Positions 1-14,929 are shown, numbered from the stretch's first letter. The stretch is 64,000 bases of DNA from Bdellovibrionota bacterium (GCA_044347345.1 JBIKUX010000001.1:1-64000), one strand, 5' to 3'. Made by a program: numbers and translations. The notes: generated from the letters alone by a model not told the origin.

Positions 1-66
1 TTTGCCGCCAGCAGCCGCTTCCTGGAGAATCCTCACTATCTGATCCTCCGTAAATCGCTTTCTCAT
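1..66 (-). CDS. IS3-family transposase OrfA, N-terminal fragment (partial)
   Basis: Manual translation gives MRKRFTEDQIVRILQEAAAGGK, matching the OrfA start pattern MKKRFTEEQIxxILxEAxAG. RBS AGGAGG lies at 72-77. Not in the ORF track. Confidence 0.85.
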   Translation of the reverse strand, partial: MRKRFTEDQIVRILQEAAAGGK

Positions 67-127
67 CTCGTCCTCCTGTTAAAGAGGACTATACATCATC
101 ACGTAGCTATTACAGGGGGGCAGGGCA
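1..127 (-). mobile_element. IS3-family (IS407-group-like) insertion sequence, left end only (cut by window edge)
   Basis: The minus strand from 127 reads TGCCCTGCCCCCCTGTAATAG..., resembling IS3/IS407 termini (5'-TG..CTGCCCCC). It is followed by an AGGAGG RBS and an OrfA start. Confidence 0.85.
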
Positions 128-1089: not shown

Positions 1090-3312
1090 TTAAATCTTCC
1101 AAGTACCTATCTGCTCTATTTCAAGAGATGGATCAAGCTCATCAAAAGAAATAGCTTGAAATATAGAATCTGTTCCTCGTAAAAAGGTAGAGACTCTACT
1201 CCTAATTTCGTTAGAACATAAGATTGACACTGGAAGAAGTCCAATAGTCCTAACAGGCTCTAGGATTCTGCGTAGACTAATAAGTAGCTTCTCTAAAGTT
1301 TCTGGTTCGATTGCCAGCGGAACAAATGGTGATTCAACAGGCACCTGCTCAAATACGGCTTCAACCTCAGAAGAAAGAGTAAACACCTTTAAAGATCTCC
1401 TATGAGACAGAAAAGCGCGCAACAGATGCCGCTTTCTCTGCACTCGCACAAAAGAAATAAGATGATTCCGATCAAACTCTTCGCCATTAGACAACATCGT
1501 GCGGTGATGTGAACAGTATGCAGAAACTACCTCAACTACCTGCTTAAAATCGCGAATACCAAGTCCATCACGCACCAACTCTTGCGCTATCTCAGTGAGC
1601 CGAGATACATCTACCAGATTTTTATTCAGCGCCTCATTGACTAAGCCTGGGAACCTCTTATCGAGCATTTTTAATAGATGATGCGTATCTGCTATTGATA
1701 CCGCCTCTTCAGGATGTCTTGAAAAAAAACACGCCACTTTAAGTAAAATAAACTCCATAAAATCAAAAGTGCGAATAGCCGCTGCTTCAAATATCTTCAT
1801 AGATGCTACTGAACGAGGTGTCCAAAAGATTCGGGCTCCTGTAAAAGGACACTCCTCATAGCGGTCAACATAAATACCAAATAATGAGGCCTGCTCCGGT
1901 ACAAGCTCAACAAGCATATTAGCGGAGTCAAGAAAACCCTCATCAACTAAAGTCCCATCTACCAAAAATTTATATCTTCCACTCAGTCCTATCTGTTCCG
2001 CAATTACCATTAAGGGAGGTAACTCGATACCTAAGGCTTGCCGAACTTCTTCTTGTAATAACTTCCACCATAAAATGTACCTATCATGATTAACTTTATA
2101 AATTTGAAAGAGTGACTCATTATCGAGCAAAACACTTACATACCTTCCTTCAGGAATACCCTCTATTTCTCCACCATTGTCCTCTTTACCTCCTAATAAA
2201 AGAGGTAAAAATTTTGTTTCGCTTGTTCCAATTTCGATACTATTTGTGTACGACGGTGTGGTACGAGCATTCTCCTCACCATTGTCACCTTTAAACTTTA
2301 AAAATTTATAGAGTGGTCCAATAATAACAGCTGACCCCACTATAAAAAACGGTAATGTAGGAAGTGCGGATATACACCCAAGCAAGATTATGAGAGATCC
2401 AGCCCCAATAATCGGCAGAGGTCGAGAAAAAAGCTCAATCCCAACTTCTTCCCCAAGAGTTAGAGGCGTACCTCGTGCTACTCTTGTTACTACAACTCCA
2501 GCGCATATAGCATTTAGTATCGCCGGTATCTGACTAACTAAACCATCCCCAACAGATAATCGTGTATATGTTGTAACAGCATCAAGAACCGATAATCCTT
2601 GAGAAACACCTATGTATAGACCCCCAATAATATTAACAAAAAATATAACAATACCGGCTATGGCGTCACCCTGAACAAAATTCATAGCACCGTCCATGGC
2701 GGCAAAAAGTTGAGACTCCTTTCTTAGTTCGTCCCGCTTATCCTGAGCCATTTCAGGCGATATGAGTCCTGCCCGTAGGTCGCTCTCTATTGTCATCTGA
2801 CGACCTGGGATAGCTTCAAGGGCAAACCGAGCTGCTACCTCAGCTACTCGAGTTGCTCCTTTTGATATAACGAAAAAATTGACTATGGTAATAACAGAAA
2901 AAATAATTAGTCCTACTACCACTTGATCACGAATCAGCACACTTCCAAACGCTTCAACTACATGACCAGCATTTGCTTGTGTTAAAATTAACCTAGTAGT
3001 TGCTACATTTAATCCAAGTCGAAAAAGTGCTGCGAGTAGCAGTAGAGCAGGAAAGGATAAAAGAGAGAGCACACTAGGAAGGTAAAGTCCTACTAGTACA
3101 AGCAGAAAAGCAAAAGTTAAGTTACCTACTAGAAGAAAATCGATTACAAAAGGTGGTACTGGCAACACAAAAAGGCCAGCGATAGCCAGAACAAACGAAA
3201 CAGTAAAGAAATCACTTTTACGAAACGAAACCTGCATGAAGCTTTTTTTCCACATACTCCGTAAAACTAATGATGCTTTCGTCTTAAAGTTTTTAGCAAG
3301 GCTATTTACCAA
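1090..3312 (-). CDS. FHIPEP-family type III export gate protein (SctV/FlhA-like)
   Basis: Multiple N-terminal TM helices, FRLGLNVATTR, RVAEVAARF..PGRQM..DL.AGLI, ESQLFAAMDGAMNFVQGDAIAG, GDGLVSQIPA and a large cytoplasmic C-domain. ESQL..DGAM is more SctV-like than FlhA-like. The exact start is uncertain (TTG overlapping the tadC stop). Confidence 0.93.
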   Translation of the reverse strand: MVNSLAKNFKTKASLVLRSMWKKSFMQVSFRKSDFFTVSFVLAIAGLFVLPVPPFVIDFLLVGNLTFAFLLVLVGLYLPSVLSLLSFPALLLLAALFRLGLNVATTRLILTQANAGHVVEAFGSVLIRDQVVVGLIIFSVITIVNFFVISKGATRVAEVAARFALEAIPGRQMTIESDLRAGLISPEMAQDKRDELRKESQLFAAMDGAMNFVQGDAIAGIVIFFVNIIGGLYIGVSQGLSVLDAVTTYTRLSVGDGLVSQIPAILNAICAGVVVTRVARGTPLTLGEEVGIELFSRPLPIIGAGSLIILLGCISALPTLPFFIVGSAVIIGPLYKFLKFKGDNGEENARTTPSYTNSIEIGTSETKFLPLLLGGKEDNGGEIEGIPEGRYVSVLLDNESLFQIYKVNHDRYILWWKLLQEEVRQALGIELPPLMVIAEQIGLSGRYKFLVDGTLVDEGFLDSANMLVELVPEQASLFGIYVDRYEECPFTGARIFWTPRSVASMKIFEAAAIRTFDFMEFILLKVACFFSRHPEEAVSIADTHHLLKMLDKRFPGLVNEALNKNLVDVSRLTEIAQELVRDGLGIRDFKQVVEVVSAYCSHHRTMLSNGEEFDRNHLISFVRVQRKRHLLRAFLSHRRSLKVFTLSSEVEAVFEQVPVESPFVPLAIEPETLEKLLISLRRILEPVRTIGLLPVSILCSNEIRSRVSTFLRGTDSIFQAISFDELDPSLEIEQIGTWKI

Positions 3313-4237
3313 GCATGGTAGTTATTTGAAGAAAGAATCCCGATAGTAAAATCATAAAAAACCCGACAAAAACTAGCCCTAAAGGGCCTGTTGCCTTTAA
3401 CTCAAGAGTTTTTATCTTTGCCTCAATTTTTGCCTCCCTCTGTAAACCTACTGCCTCTGCAAGCTCTTGTAGCTGCCGAGTAAGCTCCCCACCATGCTTG
3501 GCTACTTGGCTAAGAGACTTAAAAGCGTGCTTAAGCTCATTGTGACCCGATCTAATGCCCACCTCATTCATAGCCTCTTCAAATGAGGCGCCAGACTTTA
3601 CATAATTTTGAGCAAACAAAAACAGTTCAGTTACTGGATTATGACAATCACGCTCATCAGCCATTTGGATAACTCGGCTTATACACGGCCCAACATCAAG
3701 GGAACTACTCACTCCAATCGCTATCTGCTCAATGACAAGAGGAAGAAAATACAGAATTTCCTCATGACGTCGGCTAATTTCTTTATCTAGCATCATAAAA
3801 GGAAGACGCACACCAAATAACACTCCTATGATAGTGCTAATTAGCGCAAGGAGAATATCGTTTGTTCCAACAAATGCAAAAATAAATAGAGCAACTCCAC
3901 CTATTATTGGAAAAATTGATCTACTCTTCAAAAACTTGTTCTTATCGGCCAGACTAAATAATCCAGCTTGAAACAATTTCTCTTCATAAGAAATTTTTTC
4001 GCTACTTTTATTCTGTTTTTGGACGTCAAGTTTTATCTTATCAAAGTTTTCACTACTTACCTTTTTTTCAGATAAAATTTGATTTTCATGCAGACTTGCT
4101 AACTTAGCACTTCGTTTAAGAGAGTTAGCTGCGTGCTTAGATGATGATGGAACGACAAAAAGTACATATATCAGAAAGCAACCTGTGGCTAAAACTCCAA
4201 AGCCCAAACATAAACCGAGAATGAGAAGCCCGTTCAT
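3302..4237 (-). CDS. tadC: Tad pilus inner-membrane platform protein TadC (T2SS F family)
   Basis: N-terminal TM, central TM pair, T2SS-F-like region (LPLVIEQIAI..., QVAKHGGEL, EAKI..LELK), C-terminal TM; follows tadB. Confidence 0.85.
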   Translation of the reverse strand: MNGLLILGLCLGFGVLATGCFLIYVLFVVPSSSKHAANSLKRSAKLASLHENQILSEKKVSSENFDKIKLDVQKQNKSSEKISYEEKLFQAGLFSLADKNKFLKSRSIFPIIGGVALFIFAFVGTNDILLALISTIIGVLFGVRLPFMMLDKEISRRHEEILYFLPLVIEQIAIGVSSSLDVGPCISRVIQMADERDCHNPVTELFLFAQNYVKSGASFEEAMNEVGIRSGHNELKHAFKSLSQVAKHGGELTRQLQELAEAVGLQREAKIEAKIKTLELKATGPLGLVFVGFFMILLSGFFLQITTMLGK

Positions 4238-4252
4238 ATTTGCCTTATCGCC

Positions 4253-5233
4253 TCACAATCTTATGTCTGTAACACGACGAGACCAATAAATACCGCCAGA
4301 GATACAAAGCAATGCAAATTGCCAAATAAGATATCCTTTTGGATGTTTCAGTGAGCCAACTACAGCCTCGGGAAAAGTAAAATAAAGGAAAACCTCAATG
4401 CAGATAAGAATTAACACTATCACTACTATCGAGGCACGTTGAAGAGACACTTGACTCATAGCTGATGCCCGAAAATGTTGTCGCCTGCGAGTTTGTCGAG
4501 CAAGTCTCTCAAGCGTATCTGATAACACCCCCCCCACTGACCTACTAAGTAACAGTGCTTGTACAAACAACTCAATTTCAGGATGGTTTATATCCTCACC
4601 AAACGAGCCAATAGAAGCATCTTCCGACACGCCATATCGTGTTCTCTCAATCATAGTCTCTACCTCAAGTCTTAGTAGAGAATCTGGTTCAAGACCTTCA
4701 GCCGCTGCACTAATAGCCACTAAAGGAGTCATCCCTGTTTTAAGCAACCCTACAACTGATAGCAAAAACGGAGCATAGTCCTTATCAAAAGCTACAAATC
4801 TAGCTTCAATAGACCTCTTAAGAAGAGAACGCATAATTAAGGGTCCAACGATAAACGAAATCGGCAAAAAAATAGGAGATAAGAAAAGTGACAATATAAG
4901 AAATGCAATAATACTTAACCCCAATTCAAAAATGCGAAATACAGAAGAAGCCATTTTCCACTGAGCATACCGAATTTTTTTACCAAGAGTGTCTCTTGAT
5001 TTTACACTGGTTCGCTCTTCAAGTTTAACATCATTTACCTTAACTCGTGAGGTTAGCGTGTCACCAGAATTAAAGTTTATTTCTTCCTGATTACGATTAG
5101 AGCTAGCTAGCTGTTTAATTTGCTTATTAAAAGCTCTTTTACTTGATACTGAGGATTTAAAAACCAAAGTCACGAATACTCCAAAACTTATTACCATAAT
5201 AATGCAGAGTGTAATAAGTGATACTAATTCCAT
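4253..5233 (-). CDS. tadB: Tad pilus inner-membrane platform protein TadB
   Basis: LKTGMTP...A, 'FVQALLLSRSVGGVLSDTLERLA', TadB TM pattern; start overlaps the tadA stop (TAATG). Confidence 0.87.
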   Translation of the reverse strand: MELVSLITLCIIMVISFGVFVTLVFKSSVSSKRAFNKQIKQLASSNRNQEEINFNSGDTLTSRVKVNDVKLEERTSVKSRDTLGKKIRYAQWKMASSVFRIFELGLSIIAFLILSLFLSPIFLPISFIVGPLIMRSLLKRSIEARFVAFDKDYAPFLLSVVGLLKTGMTPLVAISAAAEGLEPDSLLRLEVETMIERTRYGVSEDASIGSFGEDINHPEIELFVQALLLSRSVGGVLSDTLERLARQTRRRQHFRASAMSQVSLQRASIVVIVLILICIEVFLYFTFPEAVVGSLKHPKGYLIWQFALLCISGGIYWSRRVTDIRL

Positions 5234-6825
5234 TATTTTCTCTCATGTGACGTGTTAAGTTTAGTAGAAAATCCAAATTCCTTAGGCTGCTCACCCAGTA
5301 GCAGACCACTTTCCTTAAGTAAGTCATCAAAGTTACTAGACCAACTATCAATACGCCAAAGAGGATTTTCTCCTCCTCGAATAATCTTAAAAATTGGCTT
5401 AATCTGTATTTGTCCCTCAATAAAGTGCCCTACTTCAATTACTTCCCCAATACGTGGTCTGCCACTTCCTTTTTCACGAAATAACCACACAACTGCATCA
5501 ACAGCCAAAGCGATTTGCTGACGAATAATATCAACTGAAACTGATTTTTGTGCGCGTCCTAGCAAACTTTCCAATCTAACTAGAGTTTCTCGAGCATTAC
5601 GCGCATGGATTGTAGACATACCTACATGCCCAGTTTGAGCACTTTCAAGAAATGCCTCTGCCGATTGTGGGGTGCGCATTTCCCCCAATATCACTCTTGA
5701 CGGCGTCATTCGCAGAGTAGTTTTAATATGCTCTTGAAGGGTTACTTCACCAACTCCCTCTGCGTTAGCTGGCCTTGATACTAAAGACCTAAAATATGGA
5801 TGTTGAAAATTTAGCTCTGGTGTATCCTCAACAGCTACAATAGATTCATCTAAGCCAAACTGGGTACCGAGACATTTAATGACTGTAGTTTTTCCAGTAC
5901 CAGTCTCTCCAGCCACCATTATGGTAGCTTGACCACTCCTTGTTAAACACGCTAGATAATTTACAATTAGTGAAGGTGCCATTTGAAAGGTAACTAAATT
6001 CTCAAGTTTTATATCAATTACTCTAGGGATTCGAAGAGATAGAAATGGCCCTCTTTGCCCACAAACACTTTCGTGAACAGCGCACAGCCTAATTCCATCA
6101 GATAGAGAAGCATCGACGGTATGATTTTGAGTTGTCAGTGACTTTCCAATTCTAAGTAATAGCCTATCTATGAACGCTCTATAAGTCTGATGATTTGGCC
6201 ATGATATTCCAGTTGTTTCACTTTTTTTGCCGCGCTGTAAAACTACAGTTCGAAAATCATAAACATGAATATCGGTAACTTCTCTATTGTCAATTAAAGG
6301 CTGTAATACTCCCCATCCCAAGAGATCTTTTTGAAGGTGAATGACGATATTAGCTTTTTCAATATCAGAAATACTTTCTGAGTGTCGACCTATAACCCTG
6401 TTGACGGCTTCTACAATATCAGCCTCAGCTATTGCATGGCCTGATTTTTGCGCCTGCTGAAGATTATAGTCACTACCAAGCTCTCTTCTTGTTTCTTTTA
6501 ATATAGCACTGGCTACAAGAGATAATTCTCCCTTCAAATTTGTATTACTACCAAAGCCGGTTGATTCGGATAACCTGCTTGTCTTTGAAGATCCAGCAGC
6601 GTTTGGTGTACTATGTATTTGAGGTTTATGCGAGTTATATAGAGATGTTTCACCTGGAGGTGGAAGTAGTCCAGTTCCTATATTTCGTCCAGTTCCCGAT
6701 TTTGAGGAAATTACTTCTGTAGCACGAGCTCCTTGCTTAGCGCGGGTAGAAAATAAACCTAAAAGCTGTTCCCTTTCGTCATTTCCTTTCGACATCGGTT
6801 GTATAATCCGTACCGAGCTAAACAA
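5233..6825 (-). CDS. tadA: CpaF/TadA pilus assembly ATPase with a long low-complexity N-terminus
   Basis: GWGVLQPL, VDASLSDG, Walker A GETGTGKTT, VEDTPEL, LRMTPSRVILGEMR, TGHVGMSTIHA. The true start is probably the ATG of MSKGND. Confidence 0.93.
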   Translation of the reverse strand: MFSSVRIIQPMSKGNDEREQLLGLFSTRAKQGARATEVISSKSGTGRNIGTGLLPPPGETSLYNSHKPQIHSTPNAAGSSKTSRLSESTGFGSNTNLKGELSLVASAILKETRRELGSDYNLQQAQKSGHAIAEADIVEAVNRVIGRHSESISDIEKANIVIHLQKDLLGWGVLQPLIDNREVTDIHVYDFRTVVLQRGKKSETTGISWPNHQTYRAFIDRLLLRIGKSLTTQNHTVDASLSDGIRLCAVHESVCGQRGPFLSLRIPRVIDIKLENLVTFQMAPSLIVNYLACLTRSGQATIMVAGETGTGKTTVIKCLGTQFGLDESIVAVEDTPELNFQHPYFRSLVSRPANAEGVGEVTLQEHIKTTLRMTPSRVILGEMRTPQSAEAFLESAQTGHVGMSTIHARNARETLVRLESLLGRAQKSVSVDIIRQQIALAVDAVVWLFREKGSGRPRIGEVIEVGHFIEGQIQIKPIFKIIRGGENPLWRIDSWSSNFDDLLKESGLLLGEQPKEFGFSTKLNTSHERK

Positions 6826-6866
6826 TTAAAAATTATGAACTGTTTTTTACTCTTATAATCTATTTA

Positions 6867-7118
6867 TCATCGAGGTCTAGTGTTGTTTCTATTATCATTT
6901 ACTGACCCAATTTCATTATCGATAAGATTAAAGTGTTGGCTAACCGTTAAACCTAAACTACGAACAGCTACCACACATACAACGGCTATTAAAGCTATTA
7001 ATAATCCGTACTCAACCATGCTTGCGCCAGAATCTCTCCTAGTTATATCGCTTTTGCTCTCTAATTTATTGTTTTTATCATCATTTTGCTCGTAAATGCT
7101 GACCATTGAAGACTCCAC
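6867..7118 (-). CDS. flp: Flp family type IVb pilin
   Basis: Prepilin cleavage/Flp motif G|ASMVEYGLLIALIAVVCVVAV; lies next to tadA. Confidence 0.92.
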   Translation of the reverse strand: MESSMVSIYEQNDDKNNKLESKSDITRRDSGASMVEYGLLIALIAVVCVVAVRSLGLTVSQHFNLIDNEIGSVNDNRNNTRPR

Positions 7119-7254
7119 CGTAACCCGATTTAACCAGAAATTTTACCTCTATTTATCACTGTAATTTGGACGTAACCTAATTCCCCATGTGGTAAGTAAT
7201 CGAATACCTGAGAAGAAAGCTTTAGGTTAACTTTTGACTTAAAATGTGCTTGGA

Positions 7255-8529
7255 TTATCGTCTTCCAATAATTTTACTGAGCCAACCGCTCTGAGGTTCA
7301 CCTTTTACTGAAGAGGACGCACCTGCTACCGAGCCAGAACCACTCGGATTATTAGATAAATTATTAGCTGAATCGATTACTCCAATCTCCTTTGCCACTT
7401 TTTCAAGAGCAACTCGAGTAGCTCGTTGGCCCATTCCATACAAAGTGCTGCCACTACCGGGCCACAAGCCTGCTTTAGGATCAAAAGGAAGCGGAGGCAT
7501 ACGCCAAGCAGCATCACCTAATTGATGCTCTGGTTCTAGCTCAGCAGCAATCTGAGCAACTGAAAGATCTGCATTAGAAGAAGGATTTATAAGTAAGACA
7601 AGTCTCTGGCCACTTCCTACCAAAGTTTTGATAAAAGATAGATACAAATCGACTGCAGTAAGTCCAAGGATAGAATCATCCAGCACTAGTAGGACAAGAT
7701 CAGCGCTTCTTAGTAACGCTCCTGAGGCAGGACCCATCCGACCACCAGTATCAACGATTACAACATCATACTGAACCCGACTGGTCTCAACAATTCTTTC
7801 TACAATGTACATCCCATCAGTATGACAAACCAAATCCATGGATTCTGCCATTCTATCAGGGGGCATAAGAACCGAAACTTCATCATTAATTGAACATACA
7901 GCATCTGCAAGCGAATCGCGTGATATATCTCGAGTACCGTTAACCCAAGCACTAACAACTTTTGCTTCAGGTCCGCTGACAGTCAGAGCTCTACTAAGAT
8001 CTCGAGTCTCAACATCTAGATCCCATAACAAAGTCTTTCTATTATAGACACTACATATCTCACCGAGAGCGGCAACTATTGAGGTACATCCCACACCACC
8101 TTTAGCATGAGTTACTACAATAATTTTTCCAGATCGCGCTCGACCCTCACGACGAAATTCCGCATTTATAGCAATAAGCTCCTGGAGCAGATCCATCGAT
8201 TGGGCACTATCGGGGAACACCTTGCGCACACCCACCGCATGTGCGGCTCTGAACGCTCCACCACTATATTCCTCATCTGTAACGAATAATATAATATGGA
8301 GCCATGATACCAAGGTGCTGGCTTGTCTCGCTATAGAGATACCCCTATCACTAACGCCTGATCCAATAATAAGAACATCAGCTTCGCTTAATCTATTCGC
8401 AAAATCACGTTCGTTTACAAGCTTAACTCTAAGATCAAGCATCTCTATATCGGTCTGAGAAAAAGATTCAACACGATTAGCACAAAATGCTTGTGCCTCC
8501 GTCGTGCTGTCTAAAATTAATAATTTCAT
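7255..8529 (-). CDS. CpaE/TadZ-like protein (pseudo-receiver + MinD/ParA-type ATPase domain)
   Basis: Receiver-like N-terminus (MKLLILD), deviant Walker A HAKGGVGCTS, LLWDLD, YDVVIVDTG; Tad context. Confidence 0.85.
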   Translation of the reverse strand: MKLLILDSTTEAQAFCANRVESFSQTDIEMLDLRVKLVNERDFANRLSEADVLIIGSGVSDRGISIARQASTLVSWLHIILFVTDEEYSGGAFRAAHAVGVRKVFPDSAQSMDLLQELIAINAEFRREGRARSGKIIVVTHAKGGVGCTSIVAALGEICSVYNRKTLLWDLDVETRDLSRALTVSGPEAKVVSAWVNGTRDISRDSLADAVCSINDEVSVLMPPDRMAESMDLVCHTDGMYIVERIVETSRVQYDVVIVDTGGRMGPASGALLRSADLVLLVLDDSILGLTAVDLYLSFIKTLVGSGQRLVLLINPSSNADLSVAQIAAELEPEHQLGDAAWRMPPLPFDPKAGLWPGSGSTLYGMGQRATRVALEKVAKEIGVIDSANNLSNNPSGSGSVAGASSSVKGEPQSGWLSKIIGRR

Positions 8530-8580
8530 TCCGATAACATCCGCTTCCTTAAAACTTTCAATGTGAAAGCTTTGTATACA

Positions 8581-9948
8581 TTATATTACGGCAAGGATAC
8601 GAATAAATATTACACCTGCTCCTAGCCCTAAAATTAATGCTACAAAAATAAATACATATTCCCAAAATACAGAACTCTCGTCCGAATAAGGAATTGCACG
8701 AGAGAATGTTCCAATTCGCTGAAGTAGCTCCGTATCATAACTCATCGTAGAGTTTTGATATGAAAGGTTATCTTCATTACCTATTGAGCGATTATTTTGA
8801 AATCCTGGAGTTTCCCATTCCTGCTCAAACTCAATTTTTTTCTGTCCCTTAGCGATGCTATTTTCATCGTGCAGAAGTGCTATTCCATTACTTATTTCCT
8901 GTGTGCCTATCTCTTCGGTGCCCTCGGTTATAGTATCCTCTACGTCGCTCTTTTCCAAAATATCTGCGCCATTTAGGCTATTAATCCCTTTCTGGTGACT
9001 GAGTTCTCTAGCTCGAACTTCAAAATTATCATCAGCGTCTAGTTTATTTTTAGGCCGTGTGTTTGAAGTTACTTTTGTTGATTTTTCATGAACACCGTTA
9101 CTTTGCAAATTCCACAAATCTCGCTCCATTTCACCGGCAGTTTGGTATCGCTCCTCAGGTTTACGCTGCATTGCCTTTAGAACAATATCATCAAGAGATT
9201 TAGGACAATCTGGGCGCAATGCACTAGGTGGCTTTGGATCAGATTTAAGGCGTTTTGTCATCGTTTCATAGACGCTCCCACCTCTAAACGGAGACTCACC
9301 AACTAACATTTCATAAGCTAAAATTCCAAGAGCGTAGAGATCTGATCTTGAGTCAACTTGAGAATTTAACATGTACTCAGGACTAACGTAGTCTATAGTT
9401 CCTACAACGCCACCATGCTCTGTAAGCTTTGGTCCATGGGAGGTACTCCGTGCAATCCCAAAATCTGCGATTTTTACATTCCCGTCATCGGTAAGAAGGA
9501 TATTTTCTGGCTTAAGATCGCGATGAATGATCCCTGCATCATGAATAGCCTGTACCCCAGCACACATTTGAGTCAGAAGACGAATAATCTCACTAATAGG
9601 AATTAAAGAATCGCGTTTACCAAGTCTGTCAGCTAAGTCACCTCCTCCAACAAACTCCATAGTATATGCTACAATATCGCCGTCTTTAAGATATTCGTAA
9701 GCTCGTACTACATTTGGATGAGACACACCATAAGAAGATGTAATCTCATTCTTAAAGCGTTGAGCCGCAACAGCGTCTTGAGCTACTTCTGGAAAAAGTA
9801 CCTTTACAGCCACGAGATGGCCAGATAGCTCTCTATGCCGACAAGCATATACAAGCCCCATACTCCCAGCTCCAAGACACTTAACCACCTCATATCGCCC
9901 TGCGATAATAGTGCCTGGTTGTAAACTTAAAAGATGCTCATCTGTCAT
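8581..9948 (-). CDS. Hanks-type Ser/Thr protein kinase with C-terminal TM helix
   Basis: LGAGSMGLVY, VAVKVL, HRDLKPEN, DFG, GTIDYVSPE, SDLYALG; hydrophobic C-terminus. Confidence 0.96.
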   Translation of the reverse strand: MTDEHLLSLQPGTIIAGRYEVVKCLGAGSMGLVYACRHRELSGHLVAVKVLFPEVAQDAVAAQRFKNEITSSYGVSHPNVVRAYEYLKDGDIVAYTMEFVGGGDLADRLGKRDSLIPISEIIRLLTQMCAGVQAIHDAGIIHRDLKPENILLTDDGNVKIADFGIARSTSHGPKLTEHGGVVGTIDYVSPEYMLNSQVDSRSDLYALGILAYEMLVGESPFRGGSVYETMTKRLKSDPKPPSALRPDCPKSLDDIVLKAMQRKPEERYQTAGEMERDLWNLQSNGVHEKSTKVTSNTRPKNKLDADDNFEVRARELSHQKGINSLNGADILEKSDVEDTITEGTEEIGTQEISNGIALLHDENSIAKGQKKIEFEQEWETPGFQNNRSIGNEDNLSYQNSTMSYDTELLQRIGTFSRAIPYSDESSVFWEYVFIFVALILGLGAGVIFIRILAVI

Positions 9949-9981
9949 TTAGAACTTTAACGAGCCTATAAAATGATATGA

Positions 9982-10926
9982 TCAATTCTCTTCCTCTACT
10001 AAAATATCGAGAGGATTGATAAATATGCGAAATCGTCTTTCACCGAATTCAATTACGTCGCTGTGTTGCAGTACACATTTTTCACCGGAAAGATCAACAA
10101 CACGATTTTCATGTACTAAGTACACTCTGGTTCCTTGATCAGAAAGTTGATCAAGCACTTCAATAACACCCTCTGTACCAATCTTCATTATTGCATGATT
10201 AAAAGATACTGATGGATGGTCTATAACGAAATAATTACCCCTCTGAGGTATAATTTCACCACTACTCACTTTACCACTTACAGATAACCGACCTGTACGC
10301 AGCTCAACCCAATCTCCCAATTTATTAATATCGTAAGAAACTAGGAATCCAACCACTGGAGTCTCTTTTACCCATACGATTTCATCTCCAACTGCCGCAG
10401 CTCTAGGTTGTTTAGTTTCTTTTGGCATAGTAGTATTTTTATGCAAGGTTTGAGTATTAACCGTTTGTGGTGACTCCTTTAAAGTAGAAAACTCAGGTTT
10501 AGAAAATGAATGTTGAGACTCCTGCGCTACAAAGGCTCCCGCTGAGGATGTAAGAGACTCACTTTCTTCCTTATTATTTATTCCTTCTTTTCCCTCTCTC
10601 CAGGATGGATGAATAGCCCCGAACCCTTCTGTTTCTGTCGGTCTGCCCTTGATGCCACTAAAAGGTGTTGATGCAGATACGGATGTTGATGCGAAACGAT
10701 CAAATTTTTGCACACTCTCAAGACCAGCGGGATTTATACCATGGGCATTAAAAGTGCCTATCGAATGCGGCTCTCTTCCGTCATCCTCAGTTTCTTGCAC
10801 TTTTTCACGCATCTGGTTGGTAAGCTCTGGCGTGAGCATTACGGTTCTGTTTCTGGCACGAGGAGCCGCGTTAGAATTACGCTCGCCCATACCAAAAAGT
10901 GGATTTTCATTATCTCCCTTTGCCAT
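9982..10926 (-). CDS. FHA-domain protein (C-terminal, divergent FHA; disordered N-terminus)
   Basis: VVGFLVS...L..G, IDHPSVSFNHA, LDQLSDQGT, LQHSDVIEFG pattern of an FHA fold; lies between the kinase and PP2C genes. Confidence 0.8.
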   Translation of the reverse strand: MAKGDNENPLFGMGERNSNAAPRARNRTVMLTPELTNQMREKVQETEDDGREPHSIGTFNAHGINPAGLESVQKFDRFASTSVSASTPFSGIKGRPTETEGFGAIHPSWREGKEGINNKEESESLTSSAGAFVAQESQHSFSKPEFSTLKESPQTVNTQTLHKNTTMPKETKQPRAAAVGDEIVWVKETPVVGFLVSYDINKLGDWVELRTGRLSVSGKVSSGEIIPQRGNYFVIDHPSVSFNHAIMKIGTEGVIEVLDQLSDQGTRVYLVHENRVVDLSGEKCVLQHSDVIEFGERRFRIFINPLDILVEEEN

Positions 10927-10938
10927 GACTGTACCTTT

Positions 10939-12003
10939 CTATTTATAACCAATGCTCCAAAATAAAATTACTAATACCGCAATAATCAATAAAATTATCG
11001 CTATCATACTCTTTTGATAGTGATATTTATTCTTAACTCTTACGGATCTTTTTTTAGATTGAAAATGAATCGATTGAGCTTTTGAGGCTGAACTTTTTAT
11101 ATTAATCTTGGGCTTTTCATCGACTAATTCCACCTCAGCTAGAGATATTCCGGAAGGAGGTGATGTTTTCAACTCTCCACCAATAGGAATAATGGCTATG
11201 GTAATGTTATCAAATCCACCACGAGATTTTGCAAGATCAACAAGCTTCACACATGCTGTAGGAGGAGCATAAGACGTCCCAATAGAACGCAGCTCATCAT
11301 CACTCACTAGAGTATATAGTCCATCTGTTACAAGCATCAAAAGATCGCCTACATCTTCACTCGTATCCCATATCCAGTATCTGGATATGGGCATCTCAAG
11401 CACCGATTCTTCACCTATACAACGGGTTAAAATATGGGCTTTAGGATGACGTAACGCATCTTCAGGGCTAATCTCTCCAGATTCCACCAATTGCTGAACA
11501 TAAGTGTGGTCAGTAGTTAACTGTTGAATCTCTCCTTTTCTCAAAAGATAAACTCTAGAGTCTCCAATGTGACCAATAACTACTTCTGATCCTTGAATTA
11601 GAGCACCTGCGATAGTTGTGCCCATGTTTGCAAAAAGTTCATTTTGTCGGCGTAGAGTAATAGCTCTATTGGCCTCTCTTATTGCAGATAGGAATGCCTC
11701 CTCAGGTCGGCGCACCGGAGACGATTCAAAATCACGACGGATCGAATCTATGGCAAGCTGCGCTGCAAGCTCACCACCCATAACTCCACCCATGCCATCA
11801 CAAACTAGCCAAGCCACCCCTGAAGGTCCTTCAATTACAGCATATCTGTCTTCGTTAAATTCTCTTTCACATCCACTATCTGTTAAGGCAGCAGGCACAA
11901 AATGCTCTCTTGCATGTGATGCGCCTTTTTCTCGAGAATCTCGAGAACGAGATTCGGCATTTTTCACCATTTGAAGCCTTAGTAAATTCTCGCAGACATA
12001 CAT
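10939..12003 (-). CDS. PP2C-family (PrpC/Stp1-like) Ser/Thr phosphatase with C-terminal TM
   Basis: REFNED, VCDGMGG, MGTT, HIGDSRVY, LTTDH, VTDGL, GGFDNIT. Confidence 0.95.
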   Translation of the reverse strand: MYVCENLLRLQMVKNAESRSRDSREKGASHAREHFVPAALTDSGCEREFNEDRYAVIEGPSGVAWLVCDGMGGVMGGELAAQLAIDSIRRDFESSPVRRPEEAFLSAIREANRAITLRRQNELFANMGTTIAGALIQGSEVVIGHIGDSRVYLLRKGEIQQLTTDHTYVQQLVESGEISPEDALRHPKAHILTRCIGEESVLEMPISRYWIWDTSEDVGDLLMLVTDGLYTLVSDDELRSIGTSYAPPTACVKLVDLAKSRGGFDNITIAIIPIGGELKTSPPSGISLAEVELVDEKPKINIKSSASKAQSIHFQSKKRSVRVKNKYHYQKSMIAIILLIIAVLVILFWSIGYK

Positions 12004-12107: not shown

Positions 12108-13223
12108 TCAAGAATCTACTATTATACTGATGTTTTTAAATTGAGGAGGGTTAAAATTATATTCGCCCAACTCTGCCAAAAAAAGCCATCTAAGAAGCTC
12201 ACGATAGAAACCAAATAACGGAAACCTCTCTGCAAGTTTATCACGCAATGCTTCACGACGAGCTTTAAAGCCAACATGGCTCTCGCCGGTAAGACGCTCT
12301 TTTTCTGCTAAGTAATTTCTCAATGGCTGAACCTGAATTTCAAAGGTACTATCAGCCCACCTCACTACAGATTTTATTGCCTGCCAACCACTCGCTTTTT
12401 TGTGTTCTGCATCCAGGTGCTCCTTAGTTTCGATGAATTGTAATCTCTTTACTTTTTCATCAAAGATAAGACCTAATGAAGTAAGATTAGGGTGAGACCA
12501 TGTAATTTGTCTGAGGCAAGCATGCACTTTTTTTGCCTCATCTGTAGAGCTAACAACAATCTTCAATCCAAAGACATCTTTAATAAAACGACTCAGATGA
12601 ACTAACTTTTTATCCATCTTTACTAATTGATCGACTTGAAATATCTCATCCACTACCTTATTCCACAACTCTTGTTCAGCTTTTACTCTGGTTAAAACTC
12701 TATGAATACCGAATTCATTTGGCTCAGTAGCAACATATTCTACGACGTTACTAACTAAGCTTGGTTTAGCCCAAACGCTCCCGTCAAAAAAAAGTAGTTT
12801 ACTCAACTGAAGATTACCTAGGTCTAAATCAATTGTTGAAAAGAGTGTTTCAGGTGCTACTGTTTGACTCAAAGTAAAGCGCTCCTTTGTAGAAGCCATT
12901 TCACCTATTACGACACTATGAAGATGAAAATTAGTGAGTAGAGTCCTACTCATTAAGAGTCCCAGACGATGCAACTTTTCCTCTCCGGCTCTAATCATAG
13001 CCGCAAAATCCTCACGCACTCTACCGAGTAGGGTGCGTGATAACTGAACCTTTATAACCATCTCTGGAGACTGCTCAATTTGTTCCTTAATGTGCTGAAG
13101 ATATTTAACAAACTCCTCAAGATGAGGAGCTTCTCCGAGAAGCCATAACGGAGAGCGGTCGCTAAACTCACACCGTCCAGTCATACTACCACAGCTTGAA
13201 TTATCTAACTGATCCTTGTCCAC
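12108..13223 (-). CDS. Divergent RelA/SpoT-synthetase-like nucleotidyltransferase domain protein
   Basis: Ordered motifs RVK...K, KDVFGLKIVV, KEHL...KKASGWQAIK, FEIQVQP, AE...SH.GFK parallel the RelA_SpoT Syn1-Syn4 motifs; no hydrolase, TGS or ACT domain is evident. Confidence 0.65.
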   Translation of the reverse strand: MDKDQLDNSSCGSMTGRCEFSDRSPLWLLGEAPHLEEFVKYLQHIKEQIEQSPEMVIKVQLSRTLLGRVREDFAAMIRAGEEKLHRLGLLMSRTLLTNFHLHSVVIGEMASTKERFTLSQTVAPETLFSTIDLDLGNLQLSKLLFFDGSVWAKPSLVSNVVEYVATEPNEFGIHRVLTRVKAEQELWNKVVDEIFQVDQLVKMDKKLVHLSRFIKDVFGLKIVVSSTDEAKKVHACLRQITWSHPNLTSLGLIFDEKVKRLQFIETKEHLDAEHKKASGWQAIKSVVRWADSTFEIQVQPLRNYLAEKERLTGESHVGFKARREALRDKLAERFPLFGFYRELLRWLFLAELGEYNFNPPQFKNISIIVDS

Positions 13224-13741
13224 TAAGACTCCTCAGGACAGTTACTAACCTTCGGCACTGCCTCAACATTAACACCGGCACCGTGATTAAATACTAGCTT
13301 ACCGCCTAGGTTGGAAGTCACAAGAACTGTAGCAAAAAGTACAGATAGTGCTCCCATAAAAATAACCCAATGAGCTACCTTTTTAACCGTTTCTAATGAA
13401 ACTAACAAAATTGCTCCCCATAACGGGACGAGTCCAATTAAAAGTATCCGACCCCATATAAAATGCAGAGCAATAGCTTGATTAGGTACACAAAAAGATT
13501 GGTCAGCAAAATCTTGTGCGATATAGCCGGTAATAAAGGCCAAGATAATCCCAACACTCGCCCCAGCCAACAAGAACAAAGTCATCCCCCTAGAAAAATC
13601 TAAAAAGCTATTAACTTGGCTTTGATACTGTCGTACATAAATAAAACAAAACAACTCCCAGAATAAAGCTGCCAGCACCAGAGGTAACGGTAGACTAGCA
13701 AATACGGGATGAATTGAACCTATGAACTGAAACAGTTCCAA
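13223..13741 (-). CDS. DUF2231-like membrane protein
   Basis: IHP..LP, ITGY, LH, GGKLVFNHGAGV; about 4 TM helices; stop overlaps the next start (TAGTG). Confidence 0.7.
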   Translation of the reverse strand: MELFQFIGSIHPVFASLPLPLVLAALFWELFCFIYVRQYQSQVNSFLDFSRGMTLFLLAGASVGIILAFITGYIAQDFADQSFCVPNQAIALHFIWGRILLIGLVPLWGAILLVSLETVKKVAHWVIFMGALSVLFATVLVTSNLGGKLVFNHGAGVNVEAVPKVSNCPEES

Positions 13742-13789
13742 AATTTTATCCTGATTATAATTTAAGCATAATTAACAGAAGTTTGTACT

Positions 13790-14929
13790 TTATCTACAAA
13801 CTAAAACTAACATAGTCACATCGTCTTTCAGTATGCGCTCTTCCAAAAATTTCTTAAAATCATCAAGCAAAATATTTAGTACCTCTTGAGCTGTATATTT
13901 ATCAGGTAAATTGACGAGAACTTTCTTTAAGTGGGTAGTGCCGTACATCTCACCAGCAAGATTTTGTGCTTCTGTTATACCATCAGTAAAAGCAAGAAAA
14001 ATATCGCCCGGAGCCATATCTATTTCTTGCAAAGAATAACTACTTTCCTCAAAAAATCCCAACGCGAAACCTTTACCTTTCACTTCATGCACTTCATTTA
14101 CATCCCGAAAGAAAACCAGAGAAGGAGGATGCCCCGCACTTGCATATAATAATGTTGCAGTGTTTGGCTGAAATAACCCGCATCCCAAAGTCACAAATCT
14201 TCCCTCGGGAAGCTGTGGGGTCATTAATCTATTCATACCAGAAAGTTGTAAATCTGGGCTTTTTTCATGAACTGCACTCATCGCAAGTTTAGTCATACTT
14301 CCAAGAAGTGCGGCTGCAAGACCATGCCCGGTCACATCTGCCACTAAAAATGAAAGCTGTTCATCCTCAAATGATGCCTGATACCAATCTCCCCCGACCT
14401 CATCTAGTGGAGAGTAATATACTGCCATTTCAAAGCTTGAATGTTTTGGAAGTTGATTAGGAAGTAGTGCTTGTTGGATTGCACGCGCCTCAGCACGCTC
14501 CTTCATTAATCTTTCATTAACATCGCGCAAAGTTGCATTTATCTCGGTAACATCAGCAGTCAATTTATCAGCACCATCAAACTTGCGTAATCGTAACTGA
14601 AGTGCGATCTTACTGGCTATGACTCCAAGTGAGACATTTGATGAAATTACCTCAATCTTTTCCCCTTGTATCTCAGGAACTTGCACTGACTCGTCAGCTA
14701 TATAAACTATTGGGACTCGCTTAGAATGTTGCTGACTTCTAATAAGGTGATAGAGAAGATCATGGTTCTCCTCATTTCTAGAATCAATGACAATGAGGTC
14801 AACTACTCTTTGGTCAAGAATAGAGACAGAAATGTCATTTTCTCCCTCTTGGAGTACTTCGTACCCCAATCGTCGGAGCATCCGAGATAATTGCTCATCT
14901 CGTCCTCCAACTATGAGTACAGAATCCAT
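13790..14929 (-). CDS. Receiver-like domain + SpoIIE/RsbU-type PP2C phosphatase
   Basis: N-terminal REC-like fold (DLIVID), coiled coil, ARAIQQALLP, VGGDWY, VADVTGHG, SAGHPP, FTDGITEA, DDVT. Confidence 0.92.
   Translation of the reverse strand: MDSVLIVGGRDEQLSRMLRRLGYEVLQEGENDISVSILDQRVVDLIVIDSRNEENHDLLYHLIRSQQHSKRVPIVYIADESVQVPEIQGEKIEVISSNVSLGVIASKIALQLRLRKFDGADKLTADVTEINATLRDVNERLMKERAEARAIQQALLPNQLPKHSSFEMAVYYSPLDEVGGDWYQASFEDEQLSFLVADVTGHGLAAALLGSMTKLAMSAVHEKSPDLQLSGMNRLMTPQLPEGRFVTLGCGLFQPNTATLLYASAGHPPSLVFFRDVNEVHEVKGKGFALGFFEESSYSLQEIDMAPGDIFLAFTDGITEAQNLAGEMYGTTHLKKVLVNLPDKYTAQEVLNILLDDFKKFLEERILKDDVTMLVLVCR

Follow-up and report, generated by a model that had tools for sequence, protein, structure and literature searches.

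A Tad pilus operon with a type III export gate gene in Bdellovibrionota is probably half of a conserved supercluster of Tad and needle-less T3SS-like genes

The Tad-like Kil system of Myxococcus xanthus is rich in FHA proteins, and Kil-like systems have been reported in Bdellovibrionales and Bradymonadales (Seef 2021, PMC8460266). Kil recruits T3SS*, which is a secretion system of type III (T3SS) without secretin, needle or translocon, perhaps into a larger joint complex (Herrou 2025, PMC12075869), and a 2025 review states that Kil and T3SS* seem to occur together only in Cystobacterineae (PMC12428579). Long and short 'Myxo' loci of non-flagellar T3SS (NF-T3SS) have also been described, in a paper that does not mention Bdellovibrio (Abby and Rocha 2012, PMC3459982). 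Here we describe a nine-gene block on the minus strand (1090-12003) of a 64,000-nucleotide stretch of DNA, hereafter the window, from a Bdellovibrionota bacterium (GCA_044347345.1, JBIKUX010000001.1:1-64000), in which a Tad pilus gene set is followed by sctV, the gene for a type III export gate. We consider it probable that this operon is the Tad half, together with the gate gene, of an ancient conserved supercluster joining a Tad pilus set to a needle-less T3SS-like set; the best reading of the supercluster, which is known from its genes, is a tandem of the Kil/T3SS* kind that is genetically fused here. The literature on T3SS in Bdellovibrio, Bdellovibrionota, Bacteriovorax and Oligoflexia yielded no description of this cluster. 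A preprint on B. bacteriovorus (10.64898/2026.07.08.737194) reports a Tad system with a TadZA fusion, a separate tadC and RcpA, in which PilD processes Flp1, and neither FlhA, SctV nor type III occurs in it. The published Tad inventory of B. bacteriovorus HD100 is unlike this cluster, and for this reason the lineage studied here probably lies outside Bdellovibrio proper.

The window makes up the first 64 kb of contig C45 in a genome of 2.53 Mb and 68 contigs (estimated to be 95.8% complete), from an uncultured lineage known from lake-water metagenomes. A preliminary description of the window had reported nine co-directional genes running from a PP2C phosphatase gene to sctV, and the open reading frames (ORFs) and profile matches bear this out:

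10939..12003, minus strand: PP2C-type Ser/Thr phosphatase with a C-terminal membrane anchor (PP2C_2 55.4 bits, PP2C 53.1 bits)
9982..10926, minus strand: FHA-domain protein (FHA 25.9 bits, cut-off 20.7)
8581..9948, minus strand: Hanks-type Ser/Thr kinase, tail-anchored (Pkinase 183 bits)
7255..8529, minus strand: CpaE/TadZ-like ParA/MinD-type ATPase (AAA_31 48.4 bits; weak CpaE_hom_Actino and MinD matches)
6867..7118, minus strand: Flp prepilin (Flp_Fap 35.7 bits, above the 32.2 cut-off)
5233..6825, minus strand: TadA/CpaF-type secretion ATPase (T2SSE 109.8 bits)
4253..5233, minus strand: TadB platform protein (T2SSF 46.8 bits; conserved directly upstream of TadC)
3302..4237, minus strand: TadC platform protein (T2SSF 48.2 bits)
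1090..3312, minus strand: FHIPEP export gate of the SctV type (FHIPEP, PF00771, 503 bits, profile positions 4-655 of 657)

The core Tad set of TadA, TadB, TadC, TadZ/CpaE and Flp is all present in the window. Spacings in the order from PP2C to sctV are 12, 33, 51, 136, 41, -1, 15 and -11 nt. Of the two overlaps that had been described, the one between tadA and tadB (1 nt) stands, whereas the 11-nt overlap of tadC and sctV hinges on a TTG start at 3312; since the proteins of relatives align only from residue ~20-30 and ATG codons are found at 3255 and 3237, sctV probably starts at one of these two, and the true gap is probably 46-64 nt. The phosphatase scored 209 bits against the Stp1/IreP family model, under its cut-off of 230, and carries a single hydrophobic segment (residues 327-354) at the protein's end, with no outside domain. 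The FHA protein has a long, low-complexity N-terminus and its FHA domain at residues 231-295, and the kinase has a hydrophobic segment (424-455) at its C-terminal end and no extracytoplasmic sensor domain. These three proteins are encoded together with the Tad and gate genes, as a putative threonine-phosphorylation switch. In Flp, a G/ASMVEY motif is followed by a hydrophobic stretch. TadA scored 207.8 bits against TIGR03819 (under the cut-off of 373), and its N-terminal ~130 residues are disordered; the protein has no FHA domain. Identity to the copies of relatives is 47-81% for the kinase, 51-72% for the CpaE/TadZ-like ATPase and 55-74% for TadA, and relatives carry 1-4 copies of flp.

We then examined the relatives of this block, in a set of 41 genomes of the same order that represent 21 families. 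TadC lay directly upstream of the gate, on the same strand, in all 29 loci around the best ortholog, with TadB preceding TadC in 27 of them (the other two were cut short), and TadC adjoined the gate in 13/13 further loci of the order. The order CpaE-TadA-TadB-TadC-SctV was kept in 20/20 regions of 20 kb, and the PP2C-FHA-kinase trio was found in 16 of these, the rest being two contig ends and two genomes that lack the trio there. In most relatives the conserved block opens with PP2C (an ortholog is present in 16/20 of the 20-kb loci), and the position of the FHA gene between PP2C and kinase is conserved. Genes that relatives have in addition are RcpC/CpaB, between flp and tadA; a kinase-like HEAT protein of ~800 residues, encoded right after sctV; and a thioredoxin-like gene. 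Since the adjacency of tadC and sctV recurs in every related locus where it can be read, it is not due to chance.

We also fetched twelve loci that belong to other orders of the class, and extended five of them further. TadC adjoined the gate in 10 of the 12; one locus ended at the gate, at a contig end, and one was a flagellar flhA. The trio of PP2C, FHA and kinase genes was found in 7/12, and in nine of these loci a kinase-like gene was followed by FHA genes of the type carried by contig C55 of our genome (described below). The tadC-sctV adjacency noted in the preliminary description is therefore conserved across a whole class-level lineage, and the kinase/FHA/PP2C module travels with the gate block. 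In the five extended loci (5/5), the whole series was contiguous and in one direction over ~27 kb:

Tad side of the supercluster: PP2C, FHA, kinase, CpaE, Flp (1-4 copies), RcpC, TadA, TadB, TadC, SctV
T3SS side of the supercluster: kinase-like/HEAT, double-FHA, FHA, SctJ, SctQ, SctR, SctU-like, small protein, TPR

Matches per locus among these five were 5/5 for the SctR/FliP family, 4/5 for the TPR protein, 3/5 for SctU-like and 2/5 for the small protein. In G001, the one genome of the same order with both halves contiguous, the SctU of the Tad-linked half consists of transmembrane (TM) segments only (230 aa, Bac_export_2 positions 2-221 of 335); its orthologs in four other genomes have 238-261 aa, and the C-terminal autocleaving switch domain was not encountered. 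An export core of SctR, S, T, U and V with SctJ and SctQ is present and contiguous with sctV in relatives, and lies outside the window here. This gene order is conserved between orders at 28-46% gate identity.

The gate encoded in the window has 740 residues and is full-length, with a polytopic TM domain, whose hydrophobic segments fall within residues 32-338, and a cytoplasmic ring domain. It scored 501 bits against the hrcV/SctV model TIGR01399 (cut-off 692) and 418 bits against the FlhA model TIGR01398 (cut-off 772), and the nearest solved structure by sequence was the injectisome SctV 7alw (350 bits, residues 32-736), which came ahead of the FlhA entries. Judged by profile matches, this gate is a divergent third kind. 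A maximum-likelihood tree was built from 41 of the 93 collected gates, namely every third sequence per class, the complete set of nine from other orders, and some selected ones. In this tree a branch with a support of 100/98 separated all 26 Tad-adjacent gates from the rest, FlhA included, and the flagellar group and the third gate group were each supported at 100/100; as the tree has no outgroup, its direction is not known. Across the class, the Tad-linked gate is 28-46% identical, compared to 58-68% for the flagellar gate. A spare flagellar FlhA was considered as an identity for this protein and was ruled out by its separate group in the tree and by the true FlhA in the flagellar operon on contig C63, which agrees with its naming as SctV in the preliminary description. 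Five genomes (G018, G020, G032, G042 and G043; 92-97% complete) in which no flagellar FlhA was found (E<=1e-150) retain the Tad-linked gate, and all five keep both non-flagellar gates. From the missing FlhA, these lineages appear to be non-flagellate; the search for flagellar-class FliP, which among these five covered G018, G020 and G032, did not find it in them either.

These data also bear on the explanation that the gate is a remnant left by the decay of a second flagellar or injectisome system and no longer serves a function. Tad-adjacent ORFs are intact and full-length in all 51 loci used, 48 columns are invariant among 39 Tad-linked gate orthologs and fall mostly in the channel-forming TM and loop region, the gene order has been kept across orders despite the low gate identity, and contigs from RNA libraries contain the sequence. 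Against these observations, decay could be read from the scores under both curated cut-offs and from the fragmentation of the cluster in this genome, with RcpC missing; we consider a remnant extremely unlikely.

The preliminary description had also stated that the window holds no other T3SS or flagellar gene, Tad secretin, RcpC or prepilin peptidase. Family searches of the whole genome agree: FliP, FlhB/SctU, YscJ/FliF, secretin, A24 prepilin peptidase and FliI/SctN were not found on the window's contig, and the RcpC query had no match there and matched only contig C51. The same searches found three FHIPEP, three FliP and three YscJ/FliF genes, and FlhB/SctU at two loci. Classified by family, the three FHIPEP gates and three FliPQR-type cores correspond to one canonical flagellum and two non-flagellar sets, which are located, together with a second Tad locus, as follows:

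C63: flagellar operon (motA, fliL, fliM, fliN, fliP, fliQ, fliR, flhB, flhA, flhF)
C7:35.5-41 kb (L005 7484-13032): second non-flagellar set, part 1 (sigma factor, SctJ, two unknowns, gate, TPR protein, small protein)
C4:17.6-25.9 kb (L016 5611-13876): second non-flagellar set, part 2 (SctI-like protein, unknown, SctR, S, T, split SctU)
C55, a short contig: third set, T3SS half (FHA proteins, SctJ, unknown, SctQ, SctR, SctS, two small membrane proteins, 97-residue protein, TPR)
C51:27-37 kb (L054 7137-15992): second Tad locus (CpaE, small ORF, RcpC, TadA, TadB, TadC)

The FlhA on C63 passes the curated FlhA cut-off with 835 bits. The gate on C7 is short (632 aa), as is the small protein encoded there (104 aa), and a short gate of this type is conserved in 57 of 61 genomes sampled. 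The SctU on C4 is encoded in two pieces, a membrane part of 252 aa and a C-terminal part of 88 aa, and the gene for a 1249-aa GAF/PAS histidine kinase lies between them. The set on C55 has no gate gene; C55 overlaps the end of C19, on which its first FHA gene begins, and C19/C55 together carry the SctJ, SctQ, SctR and SctS set matching the window's gate, with two membrane proteins and a TPR chaperone. A 452-aa double-FHA protein, encoded upstream in G001, matched the YscD cytoplasmic-domain model at 48.9 bits, above the cut-off, and the copy in this genome has a C-terminal hydrophobic segment; with these two features it looks like an SctD without periplasmic rings, and it is a better candidate for a truncated SctD than the 623-aa protein of C55. 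The latter had been considered as SctD-like and was rejected, and since no TM segment is predicted in it and its N-terminus matches a zinc ribbon, we call it a cytoplasmic FHA protein. No needle or translocon component was recognised in the Tad-linked half, although no search aimed at the needle (SctF profile) or the translocon was made; the alignment of the 97-residue protein encoded beside the TPR gene is unlike SctF. On C51, TadA is 34% identical to that of the window, RcpC paralogs are present, and the locus is followed by genes for a response-regulator protein and a hybrid histidine kinase, without a secretin. A distant STK2/Trx pair lies on C34. The A24 prepilin peptidase is present in a single copy in the genome, which the processing of Flp1 by PilD in B. 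bacteriovorus could explain.

The gate of the window had been proposed to act alone, as a solo SctV recruited into the Tad motor that works with TadA, TadB and TadC and without any other type III part. Two facts fit this proposal, namely that the window contains no other T3SS gene and that sctV follows tadC by no more than 64 nt. It is nevertheless very unlikely and already largely refuted by synteny, as the matching core (SctJ, Q, R and S with their neighbours) is present in the genome on C19/C55 and is contiguous downstream of sctV in relatives. In addition, the copy numbers of gate and FliP track each other: at least three FHIPEP matches were found in 34/41 genomes of the order and at least three FliP matches in 33/41, and G018, G020 and G032, which have no detected flagellar-class gate or FliP, have two of each. 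In G040 the only gates are the Tad-linked and the flagellar one, and the only FliP proteins are, likewise, those of the flagellar and the C55 type. With the matching core found, the hybrid Tad/type III interpretation survives on a larger scale than lone-gate recruitment, as a Tad set fused to a whole needle-less T3SS-like set and joined to it under a threonine-phosphorylation switch.

A third argument against a solo gate came from structure prediction. In Yersinia, YscX and YscY bind YscV (PMC9163089), and on this precedent the TPR/small-protein pair was chosen for co-folding. The chains were the C-domain of the window's SctV (345-740), the TPR protein of C55 and the 97-residue protein, with ortholog alignments for each. 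The complex scored 0.84, whereas the best control scored 0.00; 58 of 80 solved complexes attained that mark, as did 2 of 110 mismatched pairs. The runs shared at least 86% of contacts, and the partner had a predicted local distance difference test (pLDDT) value of at least 78. The SctV C-domain is thus predicted to dock on this T3SS-type chaperone pair; since the similar complex of YscV with YscX:YscY has already been solved, the prediction shows likeness rather than proof of binding.

Transcription was assessed in public data. The window stretch occurs in 23 of the 24 public runs listed (lake or fresh water), among them three metatranscriptomic runs of one study. Contigs from these RNA libraries match with at least 99% identity, and contigs with 100% identity bridge the six junctions tadC/sctV (3016-3432), tadB/tadC, tadA/tadB, flp/tadA, kinase/FHA and FHA/PP2C; bins without cover, e.g., 13051-13500 upstream of the operon, carry no information. 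The co-transcription that had been proposed is consistent with the contigs across the tadC/sctV junction, which do not prove a single transcript. Scans for promoters and terminators gave counts at the level of shuffled sequence. We also observed that the contig over flp (6592-7176) had the highest k-mer depth in all three RNA-library runs (19.4, 13.6 and 10.5), with a depth of ~2-7 elsewhere in these runs and a flat ~3-5 in the DNA run; this is only a hint of real transcription, as contig depth cannot rank genes.

Several observations weigh against a supercluster that joins the two sets. The window's SctV stays under the curated cut-offs of both the SctV and the FlhA model. The cluster is broken up in this genome: its operon contains neither RcpC nor the kinase-like HEAT gene, and the two C55 membrane proteins at the positions of SctT and SctU show no detectable similarity to either. 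A PF00263 search of the genome turned up neither an RcpA/CpaC nor an SctC secretin, the only two secretins being GspD in a type II secretion cluster and PilQ in a pilMNOPQ cluster, which leaves passage across the outer membrane unexplained. For the three gates, just two ATPases of the FliI/SctN type were found, FliI and an SctN-like gene with a weak FliH-like neighbour on C3 (L100 9646-11661); a third candidate T3SS ATPase, on C60, was rejected as it is the F1 beta subunit. The RNA libraries may hold DNA, and the co-fold resembles a solved complex, so the prediction may be memory. Predation, secretion and phosphorylation are all roles that we infer. Finally, the T3SS half is not beside the Tad half (+/-20 kb) in 9/10 genomes of the same order, which implies that tight linkage of the two halves is dispensable.

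This last observation fits two independent machines that share a regulon, i.e., that answer to the same kinase/FHA signal or serve the same life-cycle stage, with no contact and no cargo transfer between them. In those nine genomes only sctV is with tadC, the halves are on different contigs in our genome, and the co-fold ties SctV to T3SS-type partners and not to Tad proteins. A purely regulatory link, however, would make it odd that sctV stays with tadC, and never with sctRST, even where the cluster is split. Moreover, neither half has a secretin of its own, and in the analogous Myxococcus pair the two systems co-localise and recruitment of T3SS* depends on Kil (PMC12075869). We therefore regard a merely shared regulon as rather unlikely.

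A supercluster joining the two sets, which we continue to favour, would encode two machines. The first, as classified by its genes, is a Tad (type IVc) set of TadZ/CpaE, Flp, TadA, TadB and TadC, with RcpC in relatives. The second would be a secretin-less and apparently needle-less T3SS-like apparatus made of SctV, J, Q, R, S and T with an SctU reduced to its TM part, an FHA protein resembling a truncated SctD, and a TPR chaperone together with its small partner. SctV would form the gate of the C55-type core, and its cytoplasmic ring would dock the TPR protein and small protein in the way that YscV takes up YscX:YscY. Phosphothreonine marks would be written by the tail-anchored kinase, erased by PP2C and read by the three FHA proteins, and these marks may trigger joint assembly or firing, as in the T6SS (type VI secretion system) threonine-phosphorylation pathway. 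The T3SS-like core could then move cargo across the inner membrane, and the Tad pilus could present or deliver it at the contact site, as has been proposed for Kil/T3SS* in Myxococcus; a predatory role, raised in the preliminary description, is putative. It is possible, although we hold it doubtful, that Tad pilus and type III core go further and form one trans-envelope machine, in which SctRSTU'V, SctJ and SctQ would export cargo or tip proteins, a pilus built on TadB/TadC would replace the needle and deliver to the contacted cell, and kinase, PP2C and FHA proteins would act as a trigger on contact, with the fused form being ancestral, or best preserved, relative to the separate Kil and T3SS* loci. 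If true, this would be a new class of secretion apparatus.

We made some further observations on the surroundings of these genes. The start of the window's contig is a repeat:

1..127, strand not given: contig-end repeat (blastn to other contig ends)

The first 123-131 nt of the contig recur with 99-100% identity at the ends of C1, C27, C32, C48 and C54. The assembly breaks ~1 kb past sctV, and the repeat shared by contig ends points to a multi-copy element at this place, where relatives have the kinase-like HEAT gene. Upstream of PP2C lie three more co-directional genes (12108-14929, minus strand), one whose product matches RelA_SpoT weakly (23.8 bits, under the cut-off), one for a membrane protein with DUF2231 and one for a PP2C phosphatase of the SpoIIE type; DUF2231 and SpoIIE-type genes recur near the cluster in 3-4 of 11 genomes. 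In two genomes of different families (G017:C5 and G008:C2; L058, L071), a flagellar fliP lies ~2 kb upstream of the PP2C gene. This FliP was considered as a non-flagellar SctR and rejected, since its 238-239 bits are those of the flagellar FliP class. On C3 (L100 15736-17646, minus strand), ~5 kb from the only SctN-like ATPase gene, there is a gene for a 636-aa flagellin whose N- and C-terminal flagellin domains are separated by an insertion of FG-GAP repeats. On C55 (L017 1877-2740, minus strand), the gene for an ordinary flagellin of 287 aa is located 550 nt downstream of the TPR gene, the last one of the T3SS half, and no flagellin was found at that place in the relatives examined.

In comparison with the canonical Tad systems (Aggregatibacter tad, Caulobacter cpa), the cluster has TadZ/CpaE, Flp, TadA, TadB and TadC in the usual order, with RcpC/CpaB in relatives. 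It differs in that it is without the RcpA/CpaC secretin, TadV, TadD and recognised TadE/F pseudopilins, and in that a type III gate follows tadC. The H1-T6SS of Pseudomonas aeruginosa is controlled by a threonine-phosphorylation pathway of PpkA, PppA and Fha1. As in that system, genes for a Hanks kinase, a PP2C phosphatase and an FHA protein lie here within the cluster of the machine that these proteins would control; the kinase here, however, is tail-anchored and without a periplasmic sensor domain, the target would be Tad/T3SS-like, and phosphorylation is predicted.

The Yersinia complex of YscV with YscX:YscY (PDB 7qij) resembles the present set in a full-length SctV with a ring domain and in a TPR chaperone gene next to a gene for a small partner. 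This likeness is that of a predicted complex; no sequence match to YscX or YscY is known for the small or the TPR protein. Other differences are that no secretin was found for our system in the genome, and that SctV scored 501 bits against the 692-bit equivalog cut-off. The scattered T3SS of Chlamydiales and the 'Myxo' NF-T3SS loci (PMC3459982) likewise have core genes spread over several loci, conserved variants without secretin and other core genes, and two non-flagellar variants per genome; that paper differs in describing no Tad linkage.

The closest likeness, one of composition, is to Kil/T3SS*. Both consist of a Tad-like pilus set and a secretin-less T3SS-like apparatus with many FHA proteins, and both occur in a lineage allied to bacterial predators. 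The genes form one co-directional supercluster here, with sctV after tadC, whereas in Myxococcus they form separate loci, kil clusters 1 and 2 and mxan_2434-2464. The supercluster here also includes genes for a Hanks kinase, a PP2C phosphatase and a kinase-like HEAT protein, whereas the word 'kinase' is absent from the main text of Seef 2021. KilF is a TadA fused to FHA, unlike the unfused TadA of the window, and Kil has the KilC secretin, whereas no Tad secretin was found in our genome. How Kil and T3SS* cooperate in Myxococcus is an open question, for which one larger complex has been suggested (PMC12075869). The present cluster adds a separate lineage, labelled Bdellovibrionota, in which Tad and secretin-less T3SS-like sets occur as one cluster. 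The gate gene remains with tadC even where the other genes have gone elsewhere, and this comparison is strong evidence for a partnership that is old, under selection and found beyond the myxobacteria. The cluster further supplies candidates for parts missing from the work on Myxococcus, namely a kinase and a phosphatase, three FHA readers, a HEAT protein with likeness to kinases, an SctU of TM segments only, and a YscX/YscY-like pair that is predicted to dock the gate.

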